Positions 680 to 18,524 of a stretch of 64,000 nucleotides of DNA are shown here, piece by piece. Source of the stretch: Nitrosopumilus sp. (GTDB lineage: Archaea; Thermoproteota; Nitrososphaeria; Nitrososphaerales; Nitrosopumilaceae). The notes beneath the pieces were generated by a model. It was given only the letters and a program-made list of their open reading frames with translations. It did not search any database and was not told the origin of the DNA. Location of the stretch: positions 1,536,001 to 1,600,000 of the forward strand of contig OZ241981.1 of NCBI GenBank assembly GCA_965204345.1. Reading direction: 5' to 3'. The translations under genes were made by a program, and so were the position numbers. The first letter of the stretch is position 1. Every line of letters begins with the position of its first letter.

Positions 680-810
680 GAACCTTTGATAAACTAACTG
701 CTGATCTTCATTTCTGGGAATTTCAATTGTTTTAGGTCAGGTTATCACACTTGTAAATGATTTTAGAATACACCTGTGGATTTTTATATTGAGTATATTT
801 TCCCCAAAGT

Positions 811-978
811 ATGGTCAAACTCAAGTGTAGTGATTATGGATTTGAGTGTGACTTTGTATCTGATGGGGAGCTGGAGACTGTGCTAGATGATTTTAGAAAT
901 CATACAGAAGAAGAGCATGGAATAGATTACTCTAAAGAAGCAGTCATGCAGTTTATCCTAAGAAAACAGAAATTATAA
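811..978 (+). CDS. Small DUF1059-like metal-binding protein (55 aa)
   Basis: Read manually: MVKLKCSDYGFECDFVS...FRNHTEEEHG; Cys/Cys/His/His pattern like ORF 50624. Confidence 0.75.
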   Translation: MVKLKCSDYGFECDFVSDGELETVLDDFRNHTEEEHGIDYSKEAVMQFILRKQKL

Positions 979-983
979 TAAAA

Positions 984-2072
984 CTAGGCATCCAGCTTTC
1001 TCATTCTAGCAGATAAAACCGGAAGTTCCTTGTCTATGATTTTTTCCACGGCAGGCACAAGTCCGGCCCTTGCCTTGACACTTTCCTCATAAAGCTCCGT
1101 AATTTGATCTCTGAATAATAACTTGATTCCGGGAAGCGCAGTTATGCCCTCATCAACAGTCCTTGGATCAGATAAATCCAGAATTAAGGTGCCTTTTTTC
1201 TTTTCTTCCATCACTAGCTTGATCCTATCAAATGTAATCAAAAAGTAATCAGAAGTAGTTGCAACAAAAATTATGTCATATTTATCAAATCCTGCCAATA
1301 CATCGTTAAAATCCACAGGAGTACCGCCAAGAATGGTTGTAAACCCGGTAGCACGCCCAATACTTCTGCTTGTGACATCAAAGGCAACCTCCTTTTTATT
1401 CAGAGTCTTTGCAAGCATTGCGGCAGGCTCACCGGTACCAATTACGAGCACCTTTTTCTTGGAATCCAGACCCGCCTTTTCATCAACAAGCTTTACTGCA
1501 ACATCACCCAAAGAAATCACATTTTTTGAGATTCCTGTGGTATCCCTCATTCGTATGGCAAGTCTGATCACACTGTCAAATAATTTATTGAGAATGTTTC
1601 CAGATACTCCTGCATCCTTTGCTTTTGCTAGGGATTGTACAATCTCATCAAAGACTTCCTGTTTGCCGACTACTACAGAATCCAGACCCGATGCCAATCG
1701 CAGCAAATGCAAATAGACGTCATCGCCTTTGTAGACTTCAAGCGTTTGATCAAAATGATCAATATCAATTTGCTCTAACGAGGATAAAGACACCCATGTG
1801 TCTTTTATTTTGTTTAACACAAGCGTTTTTCCCTCTTCCCTTCTAGCGTCTGGAGAGTCATCAGTTTCAACATTGCTAACAGTGAATATTTCGACCCTGC
1901 TTGCCGTCTGGATAATAATACATTCATCAACACCGGGAATTTTTTTGAATTCCTCGCATGCTGCATTGACATCCTTGAAGGTAAATTTGGAGAGTGTGTG
2001 CAGAGGAATATTTTTGAAAGTTACCCTGGCATTCATTACATCAAAAGATACGCGGCCCAAAACATCACCCAT
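984..2072 (-). CDS. hemA: Glutamyl-tRNA reductase-like protein (atypical, catalytic Cys absent)
   Basis: LASGLDSVVVG, VIGTGE, LILDLSDPR motifs; TASRVE in place of TCNRxE. Confidence 0.8.
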   Translation of the reverse strand: MGDVLGRVSFDVMNARVTFKNIPLHTLSKFTFKDVNAACEEFKKIPGVDECIIIQTASRVEIFTVSNVETDDSPDARREEGKTLVLNKIKDTWVSLSSLEQIDIDHFDQTLEVYKGDDVYLHLLRLASGLDSVVVGKQEVFDEIVQSLAKAKDAGVSGNILNKLFDSVIRLAIRMRDTTGISKNVISLGDVAVKLVDEKAGLDSKKKVLVIGTGEPAAMLAKTLNKKEVAFDVTSRSIGRATGFTTILGGTPVDFNDVLAGFDKYDIIFVATTSDYFLITFDRIKLVMEEKKKGTLILDLSDPRTVDEGITALPGIKLLFRDQITELYEESVKARAGLVPAVEKIIDKELPVLSARMRKLDA

Positions 2073-2878
2073 TATGCGCTAATTTTATCCCGTCCGCCCT
2101 TGGCTGTTCTAAAAACATTCATACCGATATAGAAATTCTCATGCAATGATTCCAAATAAGTAATCTCATTCTTTGTGTCCTGAATTTCTTTCTCAGTGGC
2201 ATCAGGATCGTCTTTTAATTGTTTTAATTTCTGCCTAGTCTCCTCTAAAAATGAGCTAACGCCACGTTCATAATTTGAAACGCCCTCAAATTCGGGACTA
2301 AGAACATTTTCTGGAACATAGGCAGGAGTCTGATCCTGCGGGATCTCTGCCTTTCTTGTAAGCGATTCTTGCTCATCTGCAGAAAGTATGGGTCTTGGAA
2401 ATCTGTCTTTTTTATCTAGGAAGAATTCCGGCTCGCCCATATCACGTCTGAAAATTTCTTCACCCTGTCTTTTGAAAGTATGATCAGACTTTTTGGTCGC
2501 ATCTGCCTTAACTTCAGCAGCAATTGCTTTGTATTCTTCCTCGGCTGCTGCCTCTGCCTGTTCTTTAGCTGCCTTTGCTTTTGCAAGGGCCTCTTTGACT
2601 GCACGTTCGGCCTCTTCTACGGCCTTGGCAGCGGCTTCTGCCTTTAATGTCGCATCCTCAGCCGCTTTTGCATCATCAGCTGTTTTTTCAGCCGCTTTTG
2701 CAGTTGCATCCTCAGCCGCTTTTGCATCTTCAGCTGCTTTTTCAGCCGCTTTTGCAGTTGCATCCTCAGCCGCTTTTGCATCCTCAGCCGCTTTTGCAGT
2801 TGCATCCTCAGCCGCTTTTTCAGAGGCTGAATCTTTAGTTGGTTTTACTTTAGACTCTTTTTTCTCTTCAGACAACAA
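2072..2878 (-). CDS. Ala/Lys/Glu-rich repeat protein with non-repetitive C-terminal region
   Basis: 268-aa ORF with repeated AKAAEDAT units; stop overlaps the start of the hemA-like gene. Confidence 0.7.
   Translation of the reverse strand: MLSEEKKESKVKPTKDSASEKAAEDATAKAAEDAKAAEDATAKAAEKAAEDAKAAEDATAKAAEKTADDAKAAEDATLKAEAAAKAVEEAERAVKEALAKAKAAKEQAEAAAEEEYKAIAAEVKADATKKSDHTFKRQGEEIFRRDMGEPEFFLDKKDRFPRPILSADEQESLTRKAEIPQDQTPAYVPENVLSPEFEGVSNYERGVSSFLEETRQKLKQLKDDPDATEKEIQDTKNEITYLESLHENFYIGMNVFRTAKGGRDKISA
2652..2822. repeat. Tandem 18/21-bp coding repeats (gcatcctcagccgcttttgca variants)
   Basis: Directly visible. Confidence 0.85.
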
Positions 2879-3001
2879 ATTTCACTAAAATTCCCTGAAT
2901 TTTAATATTTTTGTGAGACAGTTAAATGACATCGTTTAGAGGATATGTTATGTTGTTCTGATCGGCTACAAAATGATTCTAAATATTGAAAATGAAAATA
3001 A

Positions 3002-3020
3002 TGGCACCCTCGGTGGGATT
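3002..3020 (-). repeat. att-like remnant of the tRNA-Asp 3' end
   Basis: tggcaccctcggtgggatt vs tggcgccctcggcgggatt (17/19). Confidence 0.8.
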
Positions 3021-3917
3021 CAATATTTTTGTTTAAATCCCCAAACTATGATTACGTATAAAAAAATTCATTTAAATCGATTTTTGTACTTTATCAATTC
3101 AGATCGTCATCATTAAATCTACTTCTACTCATTGCACTAAAGCCTGTAATTGGTCAAACTCCACTAAGTTTGGTTTTCATTTTGTGGATCTTTTACTTTG
3201 AATTATTGGATTTAGCGCAGAACTACGCTCTCATCACTGATTTTTACTTAAAAAGAAACCATTCATTTTCAATAAATACAATCTAAAAAGCATGTTTTGT
3301 TGGAATTACACCTTTTCTTCACCTTTGGTTTTAGTAGCAACATCAATTGTTATGGGTTCTGCTGTAGATGTAACAATATCAACTGCATATGCACACAAAT
3401 CAACGGGTATGGGATTACTCACACTCCAAGTAATTTCACCAACAGTATTTATTTCAAAATTCAGATGTGGATAAGCATTTGCAAATATTTTTTGATATTA
3501 TGGAATTAATTCCATATTTGATTCGTCTATAGTAATTAATAATACAGAAGAATCCATTGAACCAACTAGCTGTTCCTCCAAGCTTTTCATATTTAGGACA
3601 TGATGGTTCTTTTTTATTTTTCAATTTATTTTTACAATGTATACATCGATAAAAAGATCAAGTCTAATTTTCTAATCGAAGATTCTAAAGACTATGCAGC
3701 ATTTTGTAACTCTTTTTTGGAGAGATCATCAGAATTATCATTTTGAACACAACAATGAATAACATTTGTTTCTCTCTCACGTAAAACAACAATCTTAATT
3801 TTTGAGATTAATTTGGCATTATCCACTATGTCATCTATTTCATGATCAAATGGATTATCCTATTGATGAGGTGACAATTAAAAAGAATTAAGAGATATAG
3901 GATTTAAACAAAGCTGA

Positions 3918-3939
3918 TGGCACTCTCAGCGGAATTTGA
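3918..3939 (-). repeat. att-like remnant of the tRNA-Asp 3' end
   Basis: tggcactctcagcggaatttga vs tggcgccctcggcgggatttga (18/22), preceded by ggatttaaacaaa as near the tRNA. Confidence 0.7.
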
Positions 3940-3957
3940 TGCTTTCAAGTCGGCCCT

Positions 3958-4059
3958 CTGGATGGATTGCACCTGAAATTTCTATTGGATTAGGGGGGGG
4001 GAAAACCCTGCATCGCCTTTCAAACCCTGGATGGATTGCACCTGAAATTTCTATTGGAT
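3958..4059. repeat. 33-bp direct repeat pair (3958-3990, 4027-4059) around a 36-bp spacer
   Basis: ctggatggattgcacctgaaatttctattggat occurs twice. Confidence 0.9.
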
Positions 4060-4480
4060 AAATTGGTTTTTGACAAGCAAAACTAAGAAATTTTTGGATA
4101 TTTGATAATTTCTCTTGAAATTCAAAAATGATCTTGATTCGTTAAATTCCATACTCAATACTATTCTCTAACGAATTTCTTACTTTTTCTCCCCAATATA
4201 TTCAAAATGAGAGTCATTCCAAAGAAAATAGATAATGAGAATTTCTCACCAAGTTCAAATTTAATTTCTTTAGGTTGAATATGTTTGATATTAAAAACAT
4301 CTTTTTTTATTTGTTCAATACCTACATCAAATCCTGACAATCTTCCTACTCATCAAAATATGTTAGATGTGAATTAACCTAAGAGTAATTTTACCACAGC
4401 CCTCTGCATAGCATGGGTATTGTATGTAGAACTATCAGAAATAAAGTATAAGCATTACAAAGGCAGGAAAAATGTCCATA
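4050..4480 (-). pseudogene. Decayed ORF, possibly an ApeA-like (HEPN) N-terminal domain
   Basis: Fragments YFDE*/GRLSGFDV and IQKFLSFACQKPIYP broken by stops and frameshifts. Confidence 0.35.
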
Positions 4481-4510
4481 AGTTATCGCATCTCGGTGGT
4501 TATTGATGGC

Positions 4511-6358
4511 TTAGAATAGTCGTTTCTGACTTCTTTCTATATTTTTCATGCCTATTTTCTTTTTCCTTGATTTTTTGCTCTTTTTAGTTTTCTTGGATGC
4601 TTTTGAGACAATTTTTTCTTCCTTTGATTTATCCAGATTTAGTTTTGGTTGTTTACCCCATACCATCTTTTCTAGCTCTGCTCTCAATCTCATCGTCTCG
4701 ATTGAGACAGTTGTTACTTTTCGTAACAGATCTATCACATGTTCCTTATGATCTGCAAATTTGTACGTGTTGAATTTTTTCCTAATTTTGGGATCATCAC
4801 ACGATTTGGCGTGGATCATGTTTTTGGATTCTTTGTAGAATTCCAGAATCCATTCCAGTGCACACCTTGAGCTGAACTTGTATCTGAGGGCATCGTCTGG
4901 TATGTCTTCCAACATGGTCTGTTCATCTATTACTATTTTTGATAGTTTGTCCTCTTCCTTGGATTTCTTTAGACTTAATTTGACGCGGTTTTTCTTGGTT
5001 TTTTTGTCAGTTCGCTTTAGAGGATATGGTTTAGCACTTTCGAATCCAACATGAAGATCATAGAGTTTTTTGCCTATCCCAACCCATTCCATGAAATTTT
5101 CTGCCAAGGGTATTCTCGGGAATTTTCGTTGCAGATTGAACATATATTTTTCTGAATATTTTGGGTCATTGAATATGGCATATGTGTAATAGAATATGTC
5201 CTCATAAGTTATTTTACTACTTTTGTAATATGTTTGAAATAATTTTAAACCAAACTCTGTGATATTACTGTATCGTTTATTATTATCTCCATACATGTAA
5301 AGTGGAATACATTGTGCGCCAGGAATACAATCGTTTGAAGTTATTTTATTCGTTGCCAATGTTTGAAATAATATGTTAGTTTTTGGATTTACAAAACATA
5401 TTATCTTATTTGAATTTTGATCTGGAAATATCTGCGGAAATTTTCTTAACCAATCGATTATTATTTTGTCAAAGTATTGATATTTTACTACGAACGGTCT
5501 ATACATTGTCTTTTGAATATTTGTTTTGGTGTAAGATAAGCGATTACCGCGCAATAAATGATTTAATCCGCCTCTAGTCCATTTTATTGTTTTGTCTATC
5601 TCTTTCCCAATTTCTTTTACAGACTTTGTTGTATTTTCATATGTAACAATTTGACGATTATAAAATGTGAAAAAATATTTGATTTTATTTTCTAATCTTT
5701 TTTTATCAAAACTATATACCCAATCGTCTTTGGATGACATCGTTCCCATTGAAAGCAATTCAAACAGGGAATTCTCATCATACGCCACAGGAACCAACTC
5801 ATCAAAATCATTATTGGTCTGGTTAAGCCAATTAGCCTCCTTGTCAGGCATTATTTGCCTTAGTGATAGTGTAGAAAGCGAGTTGTCCGCAAGCCATTTG
5901 AGCTTCTCTTCTCTTTTCATATCGTCATCGACTTGTGTATAATAGATCTTAGATACCTTTTCACCAGTTTTAATAAAGAAGGAGATTGTGATGCCTATCT
6001 TCGCTTTACTTCCAAATACTTTTCCACCTTGTTTTCTCCAATTGGTTACATTTTGATTTCCTTTTAAATTTACAGTATAGATGTAATCAAATTCCTCATA
6101 TACTGCTCTCCTAAAACCGTCATCTGACTTTGCATCAAGAAAAGAATTATTGCTAATAAACACAACCATGCCATTTTTCTTGATACGCTCACTTGACCAC
6201 TTAAGAAACCGTTTGTACATGTCATACTTGGTGCTACCTTTTTTCACATTGGTATTGCTCCAAGTCTTTTCGATTTTTTGGTCAATGTCAGGATATTTGT
6301 CTGCAGGGTTAGCATCATTGAAGGATACCTGTATCGCGTTGTACGGCGGGTTTCCCAA
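4511..6358 (-). CDS. Truncated alternative C-terminal cassette (motif IV onward plus TRD) of the Type ISP/IIG-like methyltransferase
   Basis: Starts at (L)GNPPYN, lacks SAM-binding motif I; block-wise near-identical to the C-terminal part of 11252..14413. Confidence 0.9.
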   Translation of the reverse strand: MGNPPYNAIQVSFNDANPADKYPDIDQKIEKTWSNTNVKKGSTKYDMYKRFLKWSSERIKKNGMVVFISNNSFLDAKSDDGFRRAVYEEFDYIYTVNLKGNQNVTNWRKQGGKVFGSKAKIGITISFFIKTGEKVSKIYYTQVDDDMKREEKLKWLADNSLSTLSLRQIMPDKEANWLNQTNNDFDELVPVAYDENSLFELLSMGTMSSKDDWVYSFDKKRLENKIKYFFTFYNRQIVTYENTTKSVKEIGKEIDKTIKWTRGGLNHLLRGNRLSYTKTNIQKTMYRPFVVKYQYFDKIIIDWLRKFPQIFPDQNSNKIICFVNPKTNILFQTLATNKITSNDCIPGAQCIPLYMYGDNNKRYSNITEFGLKLFQTYYKSSKITYEDIFYYTYAIFNDPKYSEKYMFNLQRKFPRIPLAENFMEWVGIGKKLYDLHVGFESAKPYPLKRTDKKTKKNRVKLSLKKSKEEDKLSKIVIDEQTMLEDIPDDALRYKFSSRCALEWILEFYKESKNMIHAKSCDDPKIRKKFNTYKFADHKEHVIDLLRKVTTVSIETMRLRAELEKMVWGKQPKLNLDKSKEEKIVSKASKKTKKSKKSRKKKIGMKNIERSQKRLF

Positions 6359-6362
6359 GACC
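6056..6362. repeat. 307-bp perfect inverted repeat, left arm (partner 12550-12856)
   Basis: Reverse complement matches ggtcttgggaaacccgccgtac...aatttaaaaggaaat. Confidence 0.95.
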
Positions 6363-6366
6363 TGTC

Positions 6367-7530
6367 TTAATGGTGTGTGAGTATAGCCAGAATGCAGTCA
6401 ATCTGCTTCGGTGTAGCCTGATCTATCATCTCTTGTATTCGTTGCTTTTGCTCCAATTTGGGAATCTCACTAACTTGATCCAGATATTTCTCAGATCGTG
6501 CAAAAGCATTACTCATCTCGTTTACTAGAATTACAGGAAGTATTCCCTTGTTTGTAGTATATCTTGATTCTATGGTTCCTTTGTGTCCCATAAAGAAGGT
6601 ACGAAAATCATGTGCCATCTTTCCACGAGATTCTGCGATTAACAGTTGTGTATCAAAATATGCACGTAATACATAAGGCCTCCATGTAAATTTTGGTCTG
6701 AAAGTCTGACGTATTCTATCGCTTATGCGCTGTGTTGGAAGGAATGCCTTTTTTGATCTACGCCAAGTGTGTGTTGCTCGGTGGTCATTTGGAGATATTA
6801 CCGGTGAGTGTCCACACAGATCCTCCCCACATGCCAGCCTGTCGTTTAGATACGTCACAAGATGTTCTGTTGCAGATCTTGTGGAAAATGTAAAGTATTG
6901 ATGTCCAGCTTTTGACAGCTCACGTCTTACTATGATTTTATTTGGTAACTGATTGCACTTTACTTTCCCATGACATATTGTAATATCTGGAAGATCTCTT
7001 ATCTGTAAACCATCAGTTCCTCTATAGTTTCCAATTACTCCCGGTCTTAGACCTGATTTAGCCATCAGAGAAATCATTACAGATTCCCTCAAATCGGTTT
7101 TACGGTATATGTCTAACATCTCACTTGCATCTGGCACTCGTTCGTTCTGTAATGTAGGGGAAAAACCGAGTGATGCTACTCTTACTTTCCTTCTTACCAT
7201 TACGTCAAAATGTCTGAACCATGATTTTACGGTGTTTATATGATCTTCAATGTAACCGGGAGAATAATTGTGAGATTCCATCATTGTTATATGATCCTCC
7301 AGTAGATCGGTTGCAGTTCTTAGATCATTTACCGCTAGATCTGCAAGATGTGCAGGGTTAGTATGGTGCATCTCGCAGAACCTTCCCAGCTTTCGAAGAC
7401 GTCCTTCAGCTGTAAGCGGACTTCCACGTACCATGTTGTCATACCATCTTTTGACATCTTGATCCTGAAGCAGTTTAGATTTTTTGTGTTTGATTGAGCT
7501 AGCTTTTGTACATGATTTGTGAGTTGTCAT
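6367..7530 (-). CDS. Tyrosine recombinase / site-specific integrase (candidate invertase)
   Basis: SGLRP (R), YVLRAYFDT (HxxR equivalent), FMGH, ESRY (catalytic Y). Confidence 0.88.
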   Translation of the reverse strand: MTTHKSCTKASSIKHKKSKLLQDQDVKRWYDNMVRGSPLTAEGRLRKLGRFCEMHHTNPAHLADLAVNDLRTATDLLEDHITMMESHNYSPGYIEDHINTVKSWFRHFDVMVRRKVRVASLGFSPTLQNERVPDASEMLDIYRKTDLRESVMISLMAKSGLRPGVIGNYRGTDGLQIRDLPDITICHGKVKCNQLPNKIIVRRELSKAGHQYFTFSTRSATEHLVTYLNDRLACGEDLCGHSPVISPNDHRATHTWRRSKKAFLPTQRISDRIRQTFRPKFTWRPYVLRAYFDTQLLIAESRGKMAHDFRTFFMGHKGTIESRYTTNKGILPVILVNEMSNAFARSEKYLDQVSEIPKLEQKQRIQEMIDQATPKQIDCILAILTHH

Positions 7531-7880
7531 ACATATGGGTTTTAAACTAGCAACTTAATTCCGTTACCCAAGAAATTACTCTCTGTTTATAAAAAAACAT
7601 CACGCAACATGCATATTAGAATCATTATTGCTGTTTGATATCCACCCAAACCCATATGACCTCAGAATATCGTTTATCCCACACAAGATTTGTTTGTCTA
7701 TACACGACTATGCAAGAATTGAACTCCCAATAGGTGAACATATTAAGAATTATCCGCCAAAGAAAAAATAACCATGATAGTCAACAGAAGGCCAACGTCA
7801 TTCACATCACAAGGCATGCCAAAAAAATACAAAATATCTGTTGAAATGTTGAGATTAAAAAGGAGGCCATATAACCTAAA

Positions 7881-10800
7881 ATGAGTAATATGTCTGATGA
7901 AGAATGTCACATAGACAACGAAGACATAATAGACAATGAACATCACATACTCATCGATCATCTTCGTTCTGCCTTGCCAGAAACCAAGAGAGCAAGTATT
8001 GCTGTAGGTTATTTTTTCATCTCGGGATTTTCTGAAATTATGGACAGCTTAGCAAGAATAGAGAACAGTGAAGATCCAAACGACATGATACGCCTGCTAA
8101 TATCCCCCACCACAAACCGTGCTACAGCTGAGGCTCTACTTGCTAGCAATGAGAATTTGGATTCCGTTCGAAAAAATATATCAGTAAAAGAAACCACTGA
8201 TGAGCAGGAAGTAGGAATCATGAAAGACCAAGTGAAAAAAACTTTGGAATACATGCCTCAGACAACAAAAGATCAAGTAGCTGCCAAAAAGATCAGAGAA
8301 TTAATTCAAAAGAAAAAGCTACAGGTAAAGGTATACACCAGAGAACAACTACATGCAAAAGCATACATCTTTGAGCTTGATAACACCATAGCTCCACGGA
8401 TGGCAATAGTTGGATCCAGCAATCTTTCAATATCTGGAATAAAGGAACATACTGAATTAAATTTAAAGACCAAGAATGATGCAAATGTCAAAGGTCTGCT
8501 ACAGTGGTTTGATTGTCATTGGAATGATAAAAGTTGTAAGGAATTTACAGAAGAGATTGCAGATATTTTAGATCGATCATGGACAGGCAATGACAACACT
8601 CCTGAAGATGTATACGGCAAGGCATCCTTGTATGAACATGAAAAATTAATAGGTCATGGAGTTGACGGTGAGTCTAATGGAACTAAGGAACTGTTTGACT
8701 TTCAAAATAAGGCTGTCAGTGAGGCACTTACAAAACTCGATAATTACAATGGCGTGATCATTGCAGATGTGGTTGGCACAGGCAAGTCATATATTGGTAG
8801 TGAGATACTGAAGCGTCTCAAGGATTATCAACACGCAAAACCTTTGGTGATCTGTCCTCCACATCTAATTGAAATGTGGAGAAATCTTTTGCGCGATTTT
8901 GACATTTATGGAGAAGTAGAATCCAGATTTAAAATAGGTATGGATGATAATGTGTTACGTCGTTATACACATTGTGATGTGATACTGATAGATGAGAGCC
9001 ATAACTTTAGACATCACGATACCAATGCATATCAAGCACTGTCTGCATTTATGGAAGAAAAGACCGATGAGGCAAAAATGATAATGCTTACTGCCACACC
9101 AATATCCAACACCATACACGATCTTAAAAACCAGCTAAAGCTATTTCCTACAGAGGGTGTTGAAAGAATACCGCCTGTTGGATCTACCAAATTGGATGAG
9201 TACTTTAAAGGACTAGAAAGTGCAACCAGAGAGGTCAGTCCAGAAGGGGTAATCAAGATCCAAGAACTGTTAAAACATGTACTAATACGCAGAACTCGAA
9301 CCCAGATCATAAAAAAATACGCAAAACGTGATGGTAATAGATATTATATGGACATGAAAGAAGGACGTAAATATTTTCCAAAACGAAAGCTGCAAAATCC
9401 AGAGGAATATGATGCAGATAAGGTATACAACAATGCCTTTGCACAGATAGAAAATGCAATAGAATCACTTCATCTAGCAAGATATGTTCCAGGAAAATAT
9501 ATCAAAGATGAATTTCTCACAGATACAAGATATGCTGATCTTGTAAACATCTCAAGACCAATGTCTGGCATAGTCAGAACATCCCTACTGAAACGAATGG
9601 AAAGCAGCCTAAAGGCCTTTGATACTAGTATCAACAACTACCAGAAAGGATACAGACTATTTAAAAAACAATTAGAGAAGGGTAGAATTCCAATTGGAAA
9701 GGAATTCAAGGATGTAATATACAAAAAGATGGATGATGATTATGATGACAAAGATTATGATGAAGATATTGCAAACATCAAATCAAAATATGATATCAAG
9801 GCATTTGATGTGGATTTGTGGAAAAAAGAGATTGATGAGGATCTTAGCAAGTTTGCTGAAATTGTAGGCCATCTACGAGGTGAGGAATTTACAAAACGAG
9901 ATGACAAACTTCACAAGCTCCGAGATCTGATCAAAGACAAGGATGAAAAGATCTTAATATTCTCAGAATCAGCAGAAACTGTCAAATACATTTATGATTA
10001 CCTGAAAGATGAGCTCCCAAAAGATAGAAAGATAGAAAAGATTGACTCCAAGGTGGATCAAAAGACAAAAACATCGCTAGTGGAGAGATTTGATCCCAAG
10101 AACAACAATGCGGCTGATAAAATACCCGAAAACAAAGAGATTGACATACTGGTAAGCACTGATGTTTTATCAGAAGGAGTAAATCTGCATGCTGGCAAAA
10201 CCGTAATCAACTATGACTTTCACTGGAATCCGGTACGACTCATTCAAAGAGTCGGAAGACTGGACAGGATTGGTTCAGAGCATCCGATAATCGATATTTT
10301 CAATTTTCTACCTACAACAAAAATTGACATAGCACTATCATTACAGGAAAGAGTATCTGAAAAAATTAGAACAATTCGTAGAATAATTGGTTCTGACCAA
10401 CAAATATTGGTGGCAACAGAAGACATTGATGAAAAAGGCATATCGCCAATATACAATCCTGATGACAATGATGACATATCAGATCCAGAGATACAGAGTG
10501 GCATTTTCGACATAGAGGAAACAGATTCTGAAAAACATGCAGATGATATAAGCCAAGATAAGGAGAAGAAAAATTATTTTGACAATTTACCGTTTGGAAT
10601 AAGGGCAGTAACTGGTTCAGACAAGCTCATAATAGCATGCGAGGCAGAAGGATCAATTTTGGATCAAGACGGAAGGGGTAATCTCGGTACAGCATTTAGA
10701 AAGCATTATGAAATAACAAAAAATGGAAATCTGAATTCCATAACTCCATCATCTTTTCTCAAACAGATTGGTAACAACATCAACCATACAGGAAAATGTG

Positions 10801-11252
10801 ATGACTTGCAGTACAATGATTTAGTAGGCATTGCGTGGAAACGGTTCGTACGGGATATGAAAAATGAATCAGTCCGAAATACAGAGCGTAAACATCAGAT
10901 ATTTTTTGATAAAAAATTGACACGTATTGCAACACATGATAGGTCTCTTGCAGAACGTGCAAAGAAACTAAAACCGTTTGTGACTGCTGAAAAGTCCGCC
11001 ATGCTAGCATCACGAGCTACACTTGCAGAACGTGCAAAGAAACTAAAACCGTTTGTGACATCTAGAATGAGGCACACACATCAGCCTTATAGAAGCCTGT
11101 CTGAGTTGCACAGACAGATTGACAAAGACGTTTCAATGAATGATGCTACGATAATTGATGAACTTGAAAAAATCCAAAAAAAATACGGCCACATCAAATA
11201 TACAAAGACCATCAAAAAGCCCAGAATATTATACAGTATGATGGTGAGCTAA
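7881..11252 (+). CDS. PLD-family nuclease fused to SF2 (SNF2-like) helicase; putative restriction subunit
   Basis: LHAKAY...GSSNLS; ADVVGTGKS, DESH, TATP, STDVLSEGVNL, QRVGRLDRIG. Confidence 0.88.
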   Translation: MSNMSDEECHIDNEDIIDNEHHILIDHLRSALPETKRASIAVGYFFISGFSEIMDSLARIENSEDPNDMIRLLISPTTNRATAEALLASNENLDSVRKNISVKETTDEQEVGIMKDQVKKTLEYMPQTTKDQVAAKKIRELIQKKKLQVKVYTREQLHAKAYIFELDNTIAPRMAIVGSSNLSISGIKEHTELNLKTKNDANVKGLLQWFDCHWNDKSCKEFTEEIADILDRSWTGNDNTPEDVYGKASLYEHEKLIGHGVDGESNGTKELFDFQNKAVSEALTKLDNYNGVIIADVVGTGKSYIGSEILKRLKDYQHAKPLVICPPHLIEMWRNLLRDFDIYGEVESRFKIGMDDNVLRRYTHCDVILIDESHNFRHHDTNAYQALSAFMEEKTDEAKMIMLTATPISNTIHDLKNQLKLFPTEGVERIPPVGSTKLDEYFKGLESATREVSPEGVIKIQELLKHVLIRRTRTQIIKKYAKRDGNRYYMDMKEGRKYFPKRKLQNPEEYDADKVYNNAFAQIENAIESLHLARYVPGKYIKDEFLTDTRYADLVNISRPMSGIVRTSLLKRMESSLKAFDTSINNYQKGYRLFKKQLEKGRIPIGKEFKDVIYKKMDDDYDDKDYDEDIANIKSKYDIKAFDVDLWKKEIDEDLSKFAEIVGHLRGEEFTKRDDKLHKLRDLIKDKDEKILIFSESAETVKYIYDYLKDELPKDRKIEKIDSKVDQKTKTSLVERFDPKNNNAADKIPENKEIDILVSTDVLSEGVNLHAGKTVINYDFHWNPVRLIQRVGRLDRIGSEHPIIDIFNFLPTTKIDIALSLQERVSEKIRTIRRIIGSDQQILVATEDIDEKGISPIYNPDDNDDISDPEIQSGIFDIEETDSEKHADDISQDKEKKNYFDNLPFGIRAVTGSDKLIIACEAEGSILDQDGRGNLGTAFRKHYEITKNGNLNSITPSSFLKQIGNNINHTGKCDDLQYNDLVGIAWKRFVRDMKNESVRNTERKHQIFFDKKLTRIATHDRSLAERAKKLKPFVTAEKSAMLASRATLAERAKKLKPFVTSRMRHTHQPYRSLSELHRQIDKDVSMNDATIIDELEKIQKKYGHIKYTKTIKKPRILYSMMVS
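10947..11059 (+). repeat. 38-bp direct repeat pair (10947-10984, 11022-11059) with 37-bp spacer, in frame
   Basis: cttgcagaacgtgcaaagaaactaaaaccgtttgtgac twice; LAERAKKLKPFVT duplicated. Confidence 0.9.
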
Positions 11253-14200
11253 TGAGTTTTGATGAGCACATAAAACCACTGCAAAGAGATTTTCAGAATG
11301 TAGGGTACACTACAATCCGGGAACCGTGGGATACCAGCAGACTTTGCAACGAAGACGCTGTGATAGATGTGGAAATAATTGCAAGGAAGGATTATTTCAA
11401 TATTTTGTATCTTGAGGCAGAATCAAATTGGAGGGGATTATCCAGTCAAGTAGCCCAAAAAAACACAAATCCCTGTATGGTGATTACCCGATACGGCGAT
11501 ACACATCACATCTTTACTACAATGAGAGATCACGGAACTTTGCATGCAAAGCCTCGACATGTCATATTGAGGACAGAGATTAAAAAAGAGTTGATTGTCA
11601 AATTCATTCACGAGATTAAGGTTAACGTAAATGATGAACACATAGAAGTTGACACAAAAGTACAAAATGCATTTGATAAATTCACTGCATACCAACAGGC
11701 CATTGATGAATTTGCTGAGAATCTTGAAAAAGCGATAAAAAATACACGTGCTATAATAGTCAAGTCATCAAAAGACAGCAAAGACTATGATGTAGAAGCT
11801 GCAAAATTTCTAGACATGTGTCGCAAGGTAATTAGCGATAAGCTAGAACCAAACGACATTACAGAAATGTTATTGCAACATGTCCTAACATACAGAATTT
11901 TTGCCCTGATATATGATGAACACAAGCTTCATACTACAAATGCAGTTGCACGATCTCTCGAAGGATTGATCAACATACTTGGCATGGATGTAAAAGAGAT
12001 TAATGCAAACTATAGTACAATAGAGCTTGTCGCAGAGTCTATCACTGATGCTACAGAAAAACAGGATTTTCTAAAGCAGGTATATGAAACATTTTATGCA
12101 AAGTATGATCCAAAAAACAAGGACAGTTGGGGAATAGCATACACGCCATCAGAAGTAGTAGACTTTATGGTAAAGTCTACAGAACAATTACTTGAGAAAC
12201 ATTTTGGAAGAAATCTCTCTGATGACAATGTCACAATACTTGATCCTGCAACTGGAACCGGAACATTTGTGACATCCGTTTTGAGACATACAAAACCGAC
12301 ATCGCTTGAATCAAAATACAACAATGATATTTTTGCAAATGACATATCTATACTTGCGTATTACATCGCAGCTCTAAACATAGAGAATACCTATCAGGAA
12401 ATAACAGGCAAGATTAAAGAATTTGAGAATATTTGTTGGATGGATACTCTTACAAGCGGTACAAAAGATTTTGGTAAATTAAGCTCATATTTTGACGGAC
12501 AAGACAACGTAAAGCGCATATCAAGGCAACAAACAAAGGACATATGTGTGGTCTTGGGAAACCCGCCGTACAACGCGATACAGGTATCCTTCAATGATGC
12601 TAACCCTGCAGACAAATATCCTGACATTGACCAAAAAATCGAAAAGACTTGGAGCAATACCAATGTGAAAAAAGGTAGCACCAAGTATGACATGTACAAA
12701 CGGTTTCTTAAGTGGTCAAGTGAGCGTATCAAGAAAAATGGCATGGTTGTGTTTATTAGCAATAATTCTTTTCTTGATGCAAAGTCAGATGACGGTTTTA
12801 GGAGAGCAGTATATGAGGAATTTGATTACATCTATACTGTAAATTTAAAAGGAAATGCAAGAACATCTGGTGAGCTACGACGAGAACAAGCAGGCAATGT
12901 ATTTCGAGATACTATCAAGGTAGGAATCACCATATCGTTCTTCGTTAAAACTAGTGAGAATAAATCAGAGATTCATTATACTGAGATAGATAACTACCTA
13001 AAAAGCGAAGAGAAGCTCAAATGGCTTGCGGACAACTCGCTTTCTACACTATCACTAAGGCAAATAATGCCTGACAAGGAGGCTAATTGGCTTAACCAGA
13101 CCAATAATGATTTTGATGAGTTGGTTCCTGTGGTAAATGATGTCAACTCTGTATTTAAGAAGTTTTCATACGGTTCTCAATCAAATCGAGATGAATGGGT
13201 ATATGATTTTGATAAAAAAAGATTAGAAAATAAAATCAAATATTTTTCCACATTTTATAATCGTCAAATTGTTACATATGAAAATACAACAAAGTCTGTA
13301 AAAGAAATTGGGAAAGAGGTAGACAAAACAATAAAATGGACTAGAGGTGGATTAAATCATTTATTGCGCGGTAATCGCTTATCTTACACCAAAACAAATA
13401 TTCAAAAGACAATGTATAGGCCGTTCGTAGTAAAATATCAATACTTTGACAAAATAATAATCGAGTGGTTAAGAAAATTTCCTAGTATATTCCAAGATTC
13501 CAAGCCAAACATGTTAATTGGATTTCCAAATCCCAAGACTAACATACCATTCCATACATTAGTAGCTGATAAAATTATGGACACAGGCTCTGTTCTTGAT
13601 ACACAATGTATTCCACTTTACATGTATGGAGATAATAACAAACGATACAGTAATATCACAGAGTTTGGTCTAAAATTATTTCAAACATATTACAAAAGTA
13701 GCAAAATAACTTATGAGGACATATTCTATTACACATATGCCATATTCAATGACCCAAAATATTCAGAAAAATATATGTTCAATCTGCAACGAAAATTCCC
13801 GAGAATGCCATTGGCAGAAAATTTCATGGAATGGGTTGGGATAGGTAAAAAACTCTATGATCTTCATGTGGGGTTCGAAAGTGCTAAACCATATCCCCTA
13901 AAGCGAATCGACAAAAAAACCAACAAAAATAACGTCAAATTAAGCCTAAAGAAATCAAAAATAATGATCGATAATCAGACAATTCTTGAAGATATTCCAA
14001 ATCAGGCATTACAATACAAGTTTAGCTCAAAATGTGCACTAGAATGGATTTTGGAATTCTATAAGGAATCAAAAAATCAAATATCAGACAAGTCATGTGA
14101 TGATCCCAAAATTAGGAAAAAATTCAACACATACAAGTTTGCTGATTACAAGGAACATGTGATAGATCTGTTACGAAGAGTAACAACCGTCTCAGTCGAA

Positions 14201-14413
14201 ACTATGAGATTGAGAACAGAATTAGAAAATATGCCTTGGGGCAAACAACCAAAACTAAATCTGGATAAATCAAAAGGAGAACAAACTATCTCAAAAGTAT
14301 TCAAGAAAACTAAAAAGAGCAAAAAAGTAGCAAAAAAAACCCGCAAGAAAACAAAACAGGCAGCCGGTATGCAAGAAACACTTGACGACCATGGTCAAAA
14401 AAGGCTGCTCTAA
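11252..14413 (+). CDS. N6-adenine DNA methyltransferase with Type ISP-like C-terminal specificity domain
   Basis: YTPSEVVDFMV, LDPATGTGTF, GNPPYN, NLKGN, RDEWVY, YRPF, IFYYTYAIF, ALEWI; TAATG coupling to the upstream gene. Confidence 0.9.
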   Translation: MSFDEHIKPLQRDFQNVGYTTIREPWDTSRLCNEDAVIDVEIIARKDYFNILYLEAESNWRGLSSQVAQKNTNPCMVITRYGDTHHIFTTMRDHGTLHAKPRHVILRTEIKKELIVKFIHEIKVNVNDEHIEVDTKVQNAFDKFTAYQQAIDEFAENLEKAIKNTRAIIVKSSKDSKDYDVEAAKFLDMCRKVISDKLEPNDITEMLLQHVLTYRIFALIYDEHKLHTTNAVARSLEGLINILGMDVKEINANYSTIELVAESITDATEKQDFLKQVYETFYAKYDPKNKDSWGIAYTPSEVVDFMVKSTEQLLEKHFGRNLSDDNVTILDPATGTGTFVTSVLRHTKPTSLESKYNNDIFANDISILAYYIAALNIENTYQEITGKIKEFENICWMDTLTSGTKDFGKLSSYFDGQDNVKRISRQQTKDICVVLGNPPYNAIQVSFNDANPADKYPDIDQKIEKTWSNTNVKKGSTKYDMYKRFLKWSSERIKKNGMVVFISNNSFLDAKSDDGFRRAVYEEFDYIYTVNLKGNARTSGELRREQAGNVFRDTIKVGITISFFVKTSENKSEIHYTEIDNYLKSEEKLKWLADNSLSTLSLRQIMPDKEANWLNQTNNDFDELVPVVNDVNSVFKKFSYGSQSNRDEWVYDFDKKRLENKIKYFSTFYNRQIVTYENTTKSVKEIGKEVDKTIKWTRGGLNHLLRGNRLSYTKTNIQKTMYRPFVVKYQYFDKIIIEWLRKFPSIFQDSKPNMLIGFPNPKTNIPFHTLVADKIMDTGSVLDTQCIPLYMYGDNNKRYSNITEFGLKLFQTYYKSSKITYEDIFYYTYAIFNDPKYSEKYMFNLQRKFPRMPLAENFMEWVGIGKKLYDLHVGFESAKPYPLKRIDKKTNKNNVKLSLKKSKIMIDNQTILEDIPNQALQYKFSSKCALEWILEFYKESKNQISDKSCDDPKIRKKFNTYKFADYKEHVIDLLRRVTTVSVETMRLRTELENMPWGKQPKLNLDKSKGEQTISKVFKKTKKSKKVAKKTRKKTKQAAGMQETLDDHGQKRLL
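12550..12856. repeat. 307-bp perfect inverted repeat, right arm
   Basis: Partner of 6056-6362. Confidence 0.95.
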
Positions 14414-15059
14414 CCTAGAATCTCTGTACTAAGCCATCAGAATATGACTTGCTATTTTTGAGGAATTTTGGAGAAAATTTAGATCCCCGCCTAGATTTAA
14501 TGGTGAAAATTTCATATACTGTTTTCTGAAGTGTCCTATGATGTACTAATGTTCAAATTTTTGTAGAAAGACATGACGATTAAGGACTTTCAGAGGTAAA
14601 ACCATCAAATGAAATCATCAGAGAAAAAAATAGTTATCAGTAATTCTGCTAGCAGGGGCAAATGGCAGGCGTTTTCTAATTGCAGTTTTTTCTTATCTCA
14701 CAAAACCGCTAATCTGCCTTTTTCTTTATGCGTAATGATTTTTTTATTTTATGCGTAAAAACCCTCTTTACCTCAATCCGTCGATTTCTATATGCGTAAC
14801 AAGGGAGGTAACGATTTTCCGTAAAGTCAAGAAAGTTTACGATATGTTACCGTTAACTTGTAATTTTATTTGTTATACTTTCACACCAATCAAAATTAAT
14901 GATATTCCCAAGTGATCTCTTTAGTACTATTGCATCATTCCCAAAAAAAGAATCTTTGGACAGATTACAACCAGTAGGGTATGCCATGCAATAGAAAGAT
15001 GGGTCAAGAGCCTCCGATCCCCTGAAAAGATAACCTAATATGCCCCATCATAGTATGCA

Positions 15060-15183
15060 AAGTTATCAGTACCAAACATTCTCAGGCTGTTCATTACAGG
15101 CGATAATATGTTATATTTTCACTTTAGCCAAAGAGAATTTTATATCATCAAGATTTGCAGGAATACAACAGATTCAAGCATAA
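15060..15183 (+). pseudogene. HicB-like antitoxin remnant
   Basis: SVPNI/SGCSLQ and ...RFAGIQQIQA* with TAATG overlap into the hicA remnant. Confidence 0.45.
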
Positions 15184-15400
15184 TGAAACTCAATCTTGTT
15201 TCTGATAGGAATATCTGTAAGATTGTTGAAAAATTAGGTTTTACAAAAATTCATCAATAAGAAGTCATGTGAGATATGTTCATTCTGATGGTCGTAAGAC
15301 AGTTGTTCTGGTGTATGGTAATGAAATGTTAGGTAGAGGTTTGATTAATGAAATTTCAAGGACAAGACTGGTAGAAGGAACGATTTATTCTAAGTTGGAT
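15183..15400 (+). pseudogene. hicA: HicA toxin pseudogene
   Basis: MKLNLVSDRNICKIVEKLGFTKIHQ* then frameshift to SHVRYVHSDGRKTVV...LGRGLINEI. Confidence 0.75.
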
Positions 15401-15894
15401 TATCTGATTGAATACCCATTATTTACAGATTCAAAATGGAGAAATCTTTCACAAATAGTAGATTGTGTAGCTTTTGTATCAGGAAGAAATTCAGGAGAAA
15501 TACAATATTAATACACACCACAAATTGGGACAGATATTATGACATGATAGAAAAGAAATTCCGCAAAGTCAATGGAACTCATCATAGTTATAGATTAAAG
15601 ATTTTTCCAAAATAGAAAGGTTAGGGGAGAAACTCCGCATCACCTTCCCAATGTGACCTAGGTCATTCGCTAATTAAACTAGCAATTGCTGCTTTAAATA
15701 ATTATATTATATGGTAATTACCAACAAAGTAATTTATTTAGATTAACAAACTCGGCATGGAGATTAGTTTGAAAAATCTTATGATGTACATATATTCAAA
15801 TCCCATTTAGGAGATTAAACAATTCAAATTATCATTATGAGTAAAATTTGAACCTAAAAACGATGTAGGAAGCATGGATATGAACAAAAATTAA

Positions 15895-15914
15895 TGGGCC
15901 CTCGTTAGGATTTG
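15895..15914 (-). repeat. att-like remnant of the tRNA-Asp 3' end
   Basis: tgggccctcgttaggatttg preceded by aacaaaaattaa, similar to the tRNA flank aaacaaaattag. Confidence 0.55.
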
Positions 15915-16164
15915 TCAAATCTGTCTACTCTTCTCATTTATTTATGGCTAGAAAATTCAAAATTACGTTATAGATCAAAAGCTAGTTCGTAAGAGTTTAA
16001 AGAAATATCAAAGTATCATATTGTATGTATACGCAGGGTAAAACACACACCGTTATGATAGAACAAGACAAAGACGGTTTGCAATATTGTCCATTATGAG
16101 GGACACGTTGCATTGCAAAGAACAGCAACAGCATAAGAAAAATTACAGCAATATTTTATATCAG

Positions 16165-16998
16165 CTAGACTTTGATTAGCGTTGATTTTTTATTCTGTAT
16201 TTTAGTGATGCAGAAATTGGCAAATTCTTTTTCGGTATATTCCACTTCCTTTAGGACACTGTTGACCTTGGTGACTGTTGGGTATTGATCATATGTCCTG
16301 CCTTTGATTGTACGTCCTCCAGACTTTGGTCTGATTCCTCCCCATTGTTTGAAAAAAACACAAACCTTTTGCTTTTTGCATTGTTTTATGATATCTAGAA
16401 TCCACTTTTCTTCTACTTTGCGGTAACCTGGGCCACTTTCTCCTCCAATGATAACCCAGTCAATGTTTTTCAGATTTAGTTGGCCAACTGAACCAATCAA
16501 CGGCTCTATGCTCAAAAATCTTGTATGACATTTTACTTTCCGTAAATCATCAACTCTCCATTTGTAGTCTCGGTTTTCGACACTCACTCCCATCCAAATA
16601 TGTGGAGGTATTTTTTCTCCAAAGTAATCTCTAAACAGTTTTGAGAATTCAAGCATGACATGAGAACGTTTTGTCAGGACCTGATAGAAATGATGATCTG
16701 CTCGTAGCATGGTGTGAAAACAGCTGCCAATGTATTCCATTCTGGATTTTTCATGAAACAAATCCGACATGCTGTTTACAAAAACTTTCTTGCTTTTCTT
16801 CCAAGTCAAAGGTAATTCCAAGTCATCAGGCTGTTCTGTAAACTCAAAATTATTTTTGTATTTTTTTACTCCCATTGCTTTTAGTCTTTTTGAAAGTTTT
16901 TCAGCATAACAATTTGCACAACCGGGAGATATCTTGGTGCACCCTGTTGTAGGATTCCACGTTGCCTCTGTCCATTCAATGGCGGAATTGTTTGCCAT
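16165..16998 (-). CDS. DUF5131 / phage Gp37Gp68 family protein (three-Cys motif)
   Basis: IEWTEATWNPTTGCTKISPGCANCYA, FVNSMSDLFH, GGESG, FFKQWGG. Confidence 0.9.
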   Translation of the reverse strand: MANNSAIEWTEATWNPTTGCTKISPGCANCYAEKLSKRLKAMGVKKYKNNFEFTEQPDDLELPLTWKKSKKVFVNSMSDLFHEKSRMEYIGSCFHTMLRADHHFYQVLTKRSHVMLEFSKLFRDYFGEKIPPHIWMGVSVENRDYKWRVDDLRKVKCHTRFLSIEPLIGSVGQLNLKNIDWVIIGGESGPGYRKVEEKWILDIIKQCKKQKVCVFFKQWGGIRPKSGGRTIKGRTYDQYPTVTKVNSVLKEVEYTEKEFANFCITKIQNKKSTLIKV

Positions 16999-17139
16999 AT
17001 TTTTATCAGATCTATACTATTACTAAAATATTCATTTTGTAGATTGCGTTAAATTTTGACTATGGGTGCACGTATGTTCCACTGCGAAAATAAATAGCTC
17101 TAAAAAAATTAATATCATTGAATCATCACAAGGTATTAC

Positions 17140-18102
17140 TTGCCGAACAAATTTTCTATAACTGACAGCATCAAGCGAGCAAGAACAAGTTTTTCACACA
17201 TTTACAATGACGGTTTGGAAAAATCCATCGGAGATATCTGGTCCATCAAGAAATTTCTCTTGCTTGACTATTACATGCCTGTTTTCATATCTATCGTAAG
17301 CAACAATAATTTCAAGGAATTTTATTATGCAGATCCTTTTTGCGGTTCGGGAAAGTTTGCAGATTTTAAGGATCCTATCTTGAAAAAAGAATCTTTTCCA
17401 GGTTCTGCGCTAATTGGAGCACTAAATGCATCATGTTTGGGATATACCGGCTGTATTTTCTCTGATACTAATTCGGCTTATGTTGATTCATTTAATGCTC
17501 GCTTGGAGAAAAGTAAGATTATTCCAAATAATATTTCTTACAAGGCAGACACTATGGACTTTGAAAATACTGTAAAGAAAATCTTGGCGATGAGAAAATA
17601 TCAGGTTGCAATTCTTGTTTTGATAGACCCTGCTGCATATGTTCCGATTAAGTGGCATCTTATGGAGAAGTTATCTAAAGAGATTGGCGTAGACATTATC
17701 CTTAATTTTTACACTCACAGAATAGCACAGAATGTTTCTGCTACAAAGAAAAACAAGAGTGTAGAAAAGAATCTTGATGAGTTTTTTGGCGATGATTCTT
17801 GGAAGAAAATCAGAGACGGTCCAAGGTCCTCTTCTTTGGGAGAAAAATTGCTAGCACTTTACTTGGAAAAGATTCGTGTAGCATCTAAAAAAAATGTAAT
17901 AGATATAGGGGTGTACAAAGAGGGATCTCAGAAACTGTATGATTTGATTGTAATTACAAGAAGTCATGCAGGTGCAAAAGTAATAACAGATGCAAAAGAA
18001 GTGATGAGAAACGCTACTACTGAAGCTATAAAGCGTGAGCTCAAGACTCAGATTACGTCACAGACAAGACTCTTTTCTAATTCATCAAAAGACTTTGCGT
18101 AA
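17140..18102 (+). CDS. Three-Cys-motif partner protein (TcmP-like methyltransferase fold)
   Basis: WSIKKFLLLDYY, YADPFCGSG, GSALI, LIDP, FFGDDSW; adjacent to DUF5131. Confidence 0.8.
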   Translation: MPNKFSITDSIKRARTSFSHIYNDGLEKSIGDIWSIKKFLLLDYYMPVFISIVSNNNFKEFYYADPFCGSGKFADFKDPILKKESFPGSALIGALNASCLGYTGCIFSDTNSAYVDSFNARLEKSKIIPNNISYKADTMDFENTVKKILAMRKYQVAILVLIDPAAYVPIKWHLMEKLSKEIGVDIILNFYTHRIAQNVSATKKNKSVEKNLDEFFGDDSWKKIRDGPRSSSLGEKLLALYLEKIRVASKKNVIDIGVYKEGSQKLYDLIVITRSHAGAKVITDAKEVMRNATTEAIKRELKTQITSQTRLFSNSSKDFA

Positions 18103-18350
18103 AAAGATATGATTGTGGATAAGAGAAGATCTGCAAAAGAACAGCAAAAAAGGGATTCTAGTAAATTTTGATGATCTGATCACCGGAAATTAACAGCAAA
18201 TTGCAAGAGATGATTTTCTTAAAAATTACCAAGTTTTAATCATCAAAAAATCTCAAAGTACAACTCAGAGATTACTAAATATGTGAATTATGACATAGAT
18301 CACCAAAATTTACCAGAACCGGATTGAGCTAGGAATTTAAACAAAATTAG

Positions 18351-18428
18351 TGGCGCCCTCGGCGGGATTTGAACACGCGTCTCAGCCGTGACAGGGCCGA
18401 ATTCTAGACCGGGCTATACTACAAGGGC
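18351..18428 (-). tRNA. tRNA-Asp(GTC), CCA encoded
   Basis: Cloverleaf gcccttg...cgagggc-g-cca; anticodon loop CT-GTC-AC. Confidence 0.93.
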
Positions 18429-18524
18429 ACAAGTTGTTTGAAATAAAATGCCCGATTAAAAGTTTCTGTCATAACAAAATCTTTTGTAAAAGACTAAATT
18501 ATACAGTAAAGGCATTTTTTACGA

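Follow-up and report, generated by a model that had tools for sequence, protein, structure and literature searches.

In bacteria, bet-hedging by programmed inversions that alter restriction specificity has been studied extensively. In the Type I hsdS locus ivr/SpnIII of Streptococcus pneumoniae, a neighbouring tyrosine recombinase reportedly reassorts half-specificity modules through inverted repeat pairs of several lengths. In the portion of Milman et al. 2023 (PMC9881135) on which we draw, programmed inversions in bacteria were confirmed by long reads and include, among their targets, Type II restriction-modification genes beside a phospholipase D and SNF helicase gene; DISARM-like and BREX PglX genes are given as further targets, and the scan was of bacteria only. 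Here we describe a locus of the ammonia-oxidising archaeon Nitrosopumilus sp., at positions 4,511 to 14,413 of a stretch of 64,000 nucleotides (nt) (assembly GCA_965204345.1, contig OZ241981.1, positions 1,536,001 to 1,600,000; the whole stretch is hereafter the window), in which a PLD-SNF2 helicase gene and a methyltransferase-specificity gene are accompanied by a recombinase gene and by an inverted spare copy of the methyltransferase 3' half. We consider it probable that the locus serves to shuffle, by inversion, the specificity of a two-protein restriction-modification system. This kind of locus is already known in bacteria, and what is new here is the archaeal host.

Judged from their descriptions in the same portion of that study and not from sequence comparison, the Milman loci CP083813.1 and CP044495.1 resemble the present one in having PLD-SNF2 beside a large methyltransferase-specificity protein, inverted repeats inside the methyltransferase gene, partial copies nearby, and alternative alleles of a single enzyme as the proposed outcome. 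Whereas those loci are bacterial and their variants were confirmed by long reads, the present locus is archaeal, its recombinase belongs to a family outside Pfam, and we infer the inversion. The hsdS systems likewise have several repeat pairs of different lengths, which lead, as they would here, to several methylation specificities. In hsdS, however, a separate small S subunit is shuffled. Here shuffling would affect the methyltransferase gene itself, in its 3' half, and the helicase gene, the methyltransferase 5' half and the recombinase gene would, unlike in hsdS, travel on the flipped segment. The BREX PglX and DISARM DrmMI cassettes, as far as they are described in the part of PMC9881135 used here, also combine a large gamma-class adenine methyltransferase and its C-terminal specificity part with inversion beside a recombinase, but no BrxC, PglZ, DrmA or DUF1998 partner was present among the neighbours scanned here.

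An earlier note on this DNA had claimed a full methyltransferase gene and an inverted second copy of its C-terminal part, and both were found as open reading frames (ORFs; Table 1). The inverted duplication spans the whole 3' half of the methyltransferase gene (4511-6362 against the gene at 11252-14413, about 1.85 kb) and is headed by a 307-nt inverted repeat (repeat 1) with 100% complementary arms. This perfect repeat had also been claimed, and a script confirmed the exact match and located exactly two occurrences in the 2.12-Mb genome, both at this locus. Two further details of the note proved correct: the recombinase stop codon (TAA, 6367-6369) lies 4 nt from the left repeat arm, and the second copy begins just before NPPY, its first residues (L-G-N-P-P-Y) corresponding to residue 435 of the full protein. 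The spare copy aligns with residues 435-1013 and lacks the AdoMet-binding N-part of N6_Mtase, motif I and the coupler. The two C-half copies are 89.5% identical over 1818 aligned nucleotide columns and 83% (487/586) identical as proteins, and exact inverted blocks of 307, 127 (repeat 2), 104, 71 and 70 nt, together with shorter ones, are interspersed with stretches of 72-88% identity. The differences between the full and spare copies are clustered in patches.

Comparison with relatives shows, at the level of protein sequence, past reciprocal exchange between the full and partial copies. A close relative is represented by a full protein (P0126, 1051 amino acids) and a partial one (P0127, 617 amino acids), both found by protein search with the spare cassette, and by a recombinase (P0005, 98% identical), each reported from a contig of 164,739 bases. 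P0126 is 96% identical to the window methyltransferase over residues 146-534 (375/389) and 94% identical over residues 585-1053 (442/469). In patch 1, P0126 carries the spare type of the window (49/50, against 22/50 for the expressed type) and P0127 carries the expressed type of the window (48/50) on an otherwise spare-type body. In patch 1, all 25 informative sites between the close relative and the window genome (G000) were crossed. All 43 such sites from patch 2 to patch 4, and all 17 in the tail, were same-position, whereas the 3 in a small C-terminal patch were all crossed. The swap boundaries in the close relative are located in repeat 1 and in the 127-nt block. Since both products of the swap are present, crossing-over between the inverted copies, which is to say inversion, appears to have occurred twice, at two blocks; one-way gene conversion as the cause of the patch 1 swap was rejected because the exchange is reciprocal.

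A second, independent swap was found in a 13,722-base contig (full P0137, partial P0134, recombinase P0006), which in patch 1 gave 9 crossed and 1 same-position sites against G140, a genome of another genus, and 11 crossed and 0 same-position sites against an 88,006-base contig. The comparison across relatives that the earlier note had proposed was thus run at the protein level, and patch 1 was reciprocally swapped in both cases (25:0 and 9:1 crossed against same-position). Between G000 and G140, 93 of the 94 informative residue sites in conserved blocks group by genome, suggesting that the copies within a genome have been kept alike there, whereas in patch 1 the expressed copy of G000 sides with the spare copy of G140 (39/50; other pairs 23-28 of 48-50). 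Three patch-1 types exist, each of them in both full-length and partial proteins across the family. Over the first 99 residues after GNPPY, full and partial proteins are identical (99/99) in four of eight pairs; among the other four, one pair matches at 74/99, one is dissimilar, and two have later-starting partial proteins.

G140 repeats the layout at the DNA level. Its gene order is partial copy (-), recombinase (-), transposase, PLD-SNF2 (+) and methyltransferase (+), with identities to G000 of 78% for the recombinase, 57% for PLD-SNF2 and 64% for the methyltransferase. A perfect 311-nt repeat occurs at the same codons, its inner border at most 1 nt from the equivalent position, and further exact blocks measure 138 (after patch 1), 191, 164 and 120 nt; the recombinase frame overlaps the cassette and the repeat by 44 nt. 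Three matches to P0001 lie within 13 kb in this genome. Such matches were present in 36 of 401 same-family genomes (G000 counted) and, in a phylum-wide sample, in 7/56 same-family genomes and 0/344 genomes of other families; no further paired cassettes were found in that sample of 56 + 344 genomes. No flank synteny was found between the window and L059 (a cassette-free locus discussed below), G140, G149 or G015. In G140 (L129, 3944-5545 and 8902-10245), there is also a third cassette, truncated and joined to a fragment of a DDE transposase, and an IS240-type transposase is located between recombinase and helicase.

In the explanation that we favour, recombination between identical inverted blocks would flip the segment between them, which holds the promoter region, the PLD-SNF2 gene, the recombinase gene and the first 1.3 kb of the methyltransferase gene. 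The crossover blocks would be the 307 nt just before motif IV, the 127 nt after patch 1, and shorter ones beyond. Each flip would attach the constant 5' half in frame to another mix of variable patches, the idle 3' half would be stored directly behind the recombinase gene, and each enzyme version would methylate, and direct restriction to, a different sequence. When 6363-12549 was reversed in a script, methyltransferase codon 434 joined the left cassette in frame and gave a 1049-amino-acid product, in agreement with the fusion of the N-half to the other C-half that the earlier note had predicted, and the right cassette came to sit directly behind the recombinase gene. Because the 350-nt intergenic region moves along with the helicase gene and the methyltransferase 5' half, the expression signals would stay with the constant part. 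Of the two-state switch put forward in the earlier note, the exchange between inverted repeats stands and the restriction to two versions does not, since the exchange uses at least two blocks, which would allow four gene versions or more. We infer, from its position and fold, that the recombinase and not general homologous recombination carries out the flipping, and we presume that inversion takes place within living populations and that the recognised sequence really changes.

The spare copy is under purifying selection and is not decaying. The ratio of non-synonymous to synonymous differences (pN/pS) between spare and expressed copies was 0.34 in G000 and 0.33 in G140; across the two genomes it was 0.29-0.30 for positionally matched copies and 0.25-0.30 over all four cross-genome pairs. 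All length differences between the cassettes preserve the frame. Random substitutions were placed on the part of the expressed cassette that lies outside the repeat: with the observed number (242), 0 of 20000 trials kept an open frame, and with 121, 4 of 20000 did. It follows that the spare copy is used. These results speak against a decaying leftover of a duplication with no role, as do the perfect repeats at the same place in two genera and the patch types common to both. Partial gene copies are common beside mobile-element genes, and the third copy of G140 is fused to a transposase fragment, as such a leftover might be, but we regard this explanation as highly improbable. The open frame and the purifying selection would also suit a partial copy that acts without inversion as a protein of its own, co-transcribed behind the recombinase from a TTG at 6358, on the recombinase strand and 9 nt past its stop. 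However, this protein would start in the middle of the methyltransferase fold with motif I and the N-part missing, the reciprocal swaps require DNA exchange regardless, and in G140 the recombinase frame enters the repeat by 44 nt, so that the junction offers no conserved start; a separate protein is thus very unlikely.

The earlier note had placed a tyrosine recombinase between the arms, an assignment that now draws on the predicted fold and on the source names of homologues, without a match in Pfam, NCBIfam or PADLOC. Indeed, no usable match to the protein was obtained, by sequence or profile, in Pfam (including Phage_integrase), NCBIfam, PHROGs, PADLOC or the PDB, and a profile match to TAL effector repeats was spurious. 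At least 1961 homologues were found, some of which are named site-specific integrase in Nitrosopumilus and Nitrosarchaeum records, and the family is widespread in Nitrosopumilaceae and related archaea. An AlphaFold (AF2) model from 20 sequences was of moderate quality (predicted local distance difference test, pLDDT, 73.7; predicted template modelling score, pTM, 0.55). Foldseek against the PDB returned XerA (E 3.6e-6), IntI and Cre as top matches (probability 1.00, 327-369 columns, template modelling score 0.3-0.5), and among the matches listed with E <= 0.001, 19/19 were XerA, IntI, Cre/Tre or phage integrase. On this model, the 387-amino-acid protein is predicted to have the two-domain fold of tyrosine recombinases with a C-terminal catalytic domain. 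R162, K207, Y286, R289, H316 and Y324 are invariant in 20/20 recombinase sequences, with Y286 where His is usual; assigned by order and spacing and not by superposition, they would form the catalytic set, with Tyr324 as candidate nucleophile. The protein is the only full-length member of its family in this genome. Among its 24 closest homologues (P0005-P0028), eight come from a source contig that was matched by equal size to the contig of a methyltransferase homologue.

The cassettes might instead exchange by general homologous recombination, with the neighbouring recombinase being the integrase of a low-G+C island, and a number of observations lend weight to this alternative or otherwise tell against our preferred explanation. 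The exchange points are within long identical blocks that homologous recombination could use, and no motif common to repeats 1 and 2 exceeded shuffled controls, so that a core site of the recombinase is not evident. Members of the recombinase family are named integrases in their source records and occur in many copies in some genomes; 77 of the 80 genome loci of the family were without a methyltransferase or helicase match, as were all 80 metagenome loci, where none was closer than 58%. The search for the layout through this family gave one syntenic locus among the 80 genome loci (L059) and none among the 80 metagenome loci. L059 has the recombinase, helicase and methyltransferase genes in the same divergent order but no spare cassette, 1.2 kb from a tRNA-Lys, and its recombinase looks, from this setting, like an island integrase; G149 and G015 have the orthologous helicase-methyltransferase pair with broken genes, no recombinase and no cassette. 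The region of low G+C at 3-20 kb of the window ends at tRNA-Asp and tRNA-Lys. Further, the swaps in relatives are past exchange and not a rate, the linkage of P0005, P0126 and P0127 at one locus comes from the equal size of their contigs, and in four public runs the short-word contigs break off at the borders of the repeat (as do 6335-10976 and 11030-12577) and are orientation-blind, as for any perfect repeat.

Against general homologous recombination with an island integrase stands the position of the recombinase gene, whose stop abuts the cassette in both genomes read (4 nt in G000, a 44-nt overlap in G140). Moreover, the recombinase is more conserved between G000 and G140 (78%) than the methyltransferase (64%) and the helicase (57%), its closest homologues come from contigs equal in size to those of methyltransferase homologues, and there is no direct repeat of integration, the sole tRNA-like repeat being inverted, 35 nt long and 74% identical. 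On balance we hold this alternative to be unlikely, and we prefer an inversion driven by the recombinase.

The family as a whole nevertheless looks, from the loci surveyed, mobile-element linked. One Nitrosopumilus chromosome has members at eight places (L023, L028, L029, L033, L048, L085, L093, L094). At L048 the recombinase relative is found among insertion sequences and another DUF5131 gene; the long inverted repeats there were considered as a cassette layout and rejected, since they are insertion sequences.

Could the second copy be an assembly artefact of two strain variants? Minor variant contigs do exist in the cassette region of two culture runs (X5 and X7). In both of these runs, however, the two cassettes are covered at flank-like depth and the repeat bin at about twice that depth (263.8 against 139.5 in X5), contig depth being a weak measure, and the layout recurs in separate assemblies, as DNA in G140 and as proteins in the contigs of 164,739, 13,722 and 88,006 bases. 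An artefact is extremely improbable. The minor contigs themselves contain a joint from 5068 to 5296, with undetermined letters between (depth 28.4/188, 15%, in X5 and 80.1/210, 38%, in X7), and a joint from 4789 to 13119 or 5799 at a depth of about 5-6; loose ends lie at 4742 and 13166. They could stem from a sub-population or from another organism with a related gene.

The 1053-amino-acid protein contains, in Pfam, ISP_coupler (PF22240), N6_Mtase/Eco57I (PF02384) and Type_ISP_C (PF18135), and the PADLOC Type IIG model matches it over model positions 150-1012 of 1024. The nearest solved structures are 7lo5 (E 2.6e-191, residues 146-991), LlaGI (E 6e-115) and LlaBIII (E 8e-115). The depositors label 7lo5 only as an adenine-specific methyltransferase; we take it to be DrdV, with whose preprint its length (1029) and residue numbers agree. 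The spare cassette matches Type_ISP_C (2.6e-73) and the Eco57I tail. In the 1123-amino-acid protein, Pfam recognises a PLD nuclease joined to an SNF2 helicase, and the PADLOC model 'HKD+Snf2' matches as well (1.3e-70); against the NCBIfam model of DISARM DrmD the protein scored 113.9 bits, with a cut-off of 610. The Type ISP domain set (coupler, gamma-class methyltransferase and C-terminal specificity domain) is therefore present, homologous to that of LlaGI, LlaBIII and DrdV. Type ISP enzymes proper are a single polypeptide with an Mrr-type nuclease and their own helicase, a class that was ruled out here because a PLD nuclease and an SNF2 helicase occupy a separate protein. Class 1 DISARM was ruled out as well, with no DrmA or DrmB (DUF1998) among the ORFs scanned in 1-20000 and DrmD models below their cut-offs, and so was BREX, with no BrxC or PglZ among the neighbours scanned. 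Judged by its domains, the system probably operates as would a Type ISP enzyme whose functions are divided between two proteins, with a different nuclease.

DrdV, a Type IIL/IIG enzyme like MmeI, has an N-terminal nuclease of the PD-(D/E)xK kind and no helicase, and residues 1-145 of the present methyltransferase match neither DrdV nor Type ISP. No match to these residues was found in Pfam, PDB or PADLOC profiles, and a language-model search gave a weak match to a cluster of the BpuSI N-terminal domain (score 0.91, few shared features). This N-domain (window 11252-11686) is 52% identical (75/145) to that of P0126, against 96% over the following 389 residues; such a sharp mosaic boundary after residue 145 suggests separate exchange or fast evolution of the N-domain. 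Elsewhere in the same genome and outside the window (L015, G000:C1:1374830-1377424), a 1592-amino-acid frame is 32-34% identical to the methyltransferase part and about as long as expected of a classical single-chain Type ISP enzyme.

The variable patches coincide with positions aligned to DNA contacts of DrdV. The part of the DrdV preprint that describes these contacts reports that F562 stacks on the flipped adenine while K567 fills the vacated place, and that D803 and K807 are base-specific contacts of the specificity domain. The patch 1 loop is aligned to F562 and K567, and patch 3, where windows have a nucleotide identity of 0.72-0.73, covers the positions aligned to D803 and K807; counted along the alignments, the residues at these two positions are G and D in the expressed copy and D and G in the spare copy. 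The DrdV methyltransferase contacts K486 and K488 map inside the perfect repeat and are invariant between the copies. These differences at contact-aligned positions support a changed recognised sequence and do not prove it.

Table 1. Features of the putative inversion locus (positions in the window)
Feature	Positions	Strand	Remarks
Spare partial cassette, promoter-distal	4511..6358	-	615 codons, intact frame; motif IV onward and Type ISP C-terminal specificity domain
Left arm, inverted repeat 2	5785..5911		127 nt, exact; just past variable patch 1; holds the swap boundary of the close relative
Left arm, inverted repeat 1	6056..6362		307 nt, perfect
Tyrosine-recombinase-fold gene (predicted)	6367..7530	-	387 amino acids
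Divergent intergenic region, recombinase/helicase	7531..7880		350 nt, without ORF; within the invertible segment; promoters presumed
PLD (HKD) nuclease-SNF2-type helicase gene	7881..11252	+	1123 amino acids; Pfam PLDc_2, SNF2-rel_dom, Helicase_C; stop overlaps the methyltransferase start (both at 11252)
Full methyltransferase-specificity gene	11252..14413	+	1053 amino acids; N-domain 1-145, coupler, gamma-class N6-adenine methyltransferase, Type ISP C-terminal specificity domain
Right arm, inverted repeat 1	12550..12856		307 nt, perfect; within the methyltransferase gene, begins two codons before GNPPY
Variable patch 1, expressed copy	12857..13006	+	residues ~535-584; spare counterpart ~5912-6055; identity 23/48
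Right arm, inverted repeat 2	13007..13133		127 nt, exact
Variable patch 3, expressed copy	13490..13624	+	residues ~747-791; spare counterpart ~5294-5431; identity 23/45

The window at 3000-20000 has a G+C of 0.29-0.39, against 0.40-0.45 in the flanks, and contains the whole locus and a DUF5131 gene (16165-16998). This stretch ends at tRNA-Asp (18351-18428) and tRNA-Lys (18525-18599), and its composition and tRNA end would fit an acquired island. The repeat scan of the window gave no direct repeat that would mark an integration, and a tRNA-linked attachment repeat as integration scar was rejected, as the only match was the inverted one mentioned above. The non-coding DNA on the left side of the spare cassette contains an exact direct repeat of 33 nt (3958-3990 and 4027-4059, 69 nt apart). 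Contigs of two metagenome runs omit exactly 69 nt at this repeat (3958-4059), suggesting that its copy number varies from strain to strain. An exact direct repeat of 38 nt in the helicase gene, at its 3' end (10947-10984 and 11022-11059, 75 nt apart), doubles a short peptide, and public-run contigs break there (10947-11059). A 268-amino-acid protein (2072-2878, minus strand) has an alanine-, glutamate- and lysine-rich repeat region of 81-nt units (5 copies) and gave no match in a Pfam search.

Another arrangement was observed in a genome of another genus (L130, G143:C1:2077000-2096900). At 5959-13661 of this locus, a Type ISP gene of the classical build (Mrr nuclease, helicase, coupler), interrupted by an insertion sequence, faces an inverted copy of 470 amino acids that comprises the specificity domain only. 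The repeats (841 nt at 96% and 506 nt at 98%) flank a short divergent patch, and no recombinase relative was found within the 19.9 kb. Going by this layout, L130 may be a second kind of cassette arrangement.

For archaea, the part of Chanin et al. (PMC10028968) used here reports, for 42 long-read data sets of Euryarchaeota and Crenarchaeota, 12 putative invertons, and places the intragenic archaeal inverton in an adenylosuccinate synthase gene. In the portion consulted of a survey of integrated elements in Thaumarchaeota (PMC6563490), tyrosine recombinases are treated as integrases, and the main text of a 2024 review of archaeal restriction-modification (PMC11033074) does not contain 'phase varia', 'inversion', 'invert', 'shufflon' or 'Type ISP'. 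We found no such locus in archaea in the literature at the level of titles and abstracts, and supplementary tables might list one. A more extended form of our explanation would hold that this is an active, recombinase-driven multi-site shufflon with at least four specificities per clonal population, the first in Nitrososphaeria, present in at least two genera, and served by a recombinase that evades profiles and derives from island integrases; taken as a whole, we give this an even chance.

Members of the Nitrosopumilaceae rank with the most abundant microbes of the sea, and viral infection is one of the chief causes of their death. If restriction specificity can indeed be switched, virus-host dynamics and methylomes at strain level would have to be read differently in this family. 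The 6.2-kb flip would also be a simple handle on site-specific recombination in a group without a genetic system. A confirmed case would give Nitrososphaeria their first described example of a programmed gene-altering inversion and of a phase-variable methylome.

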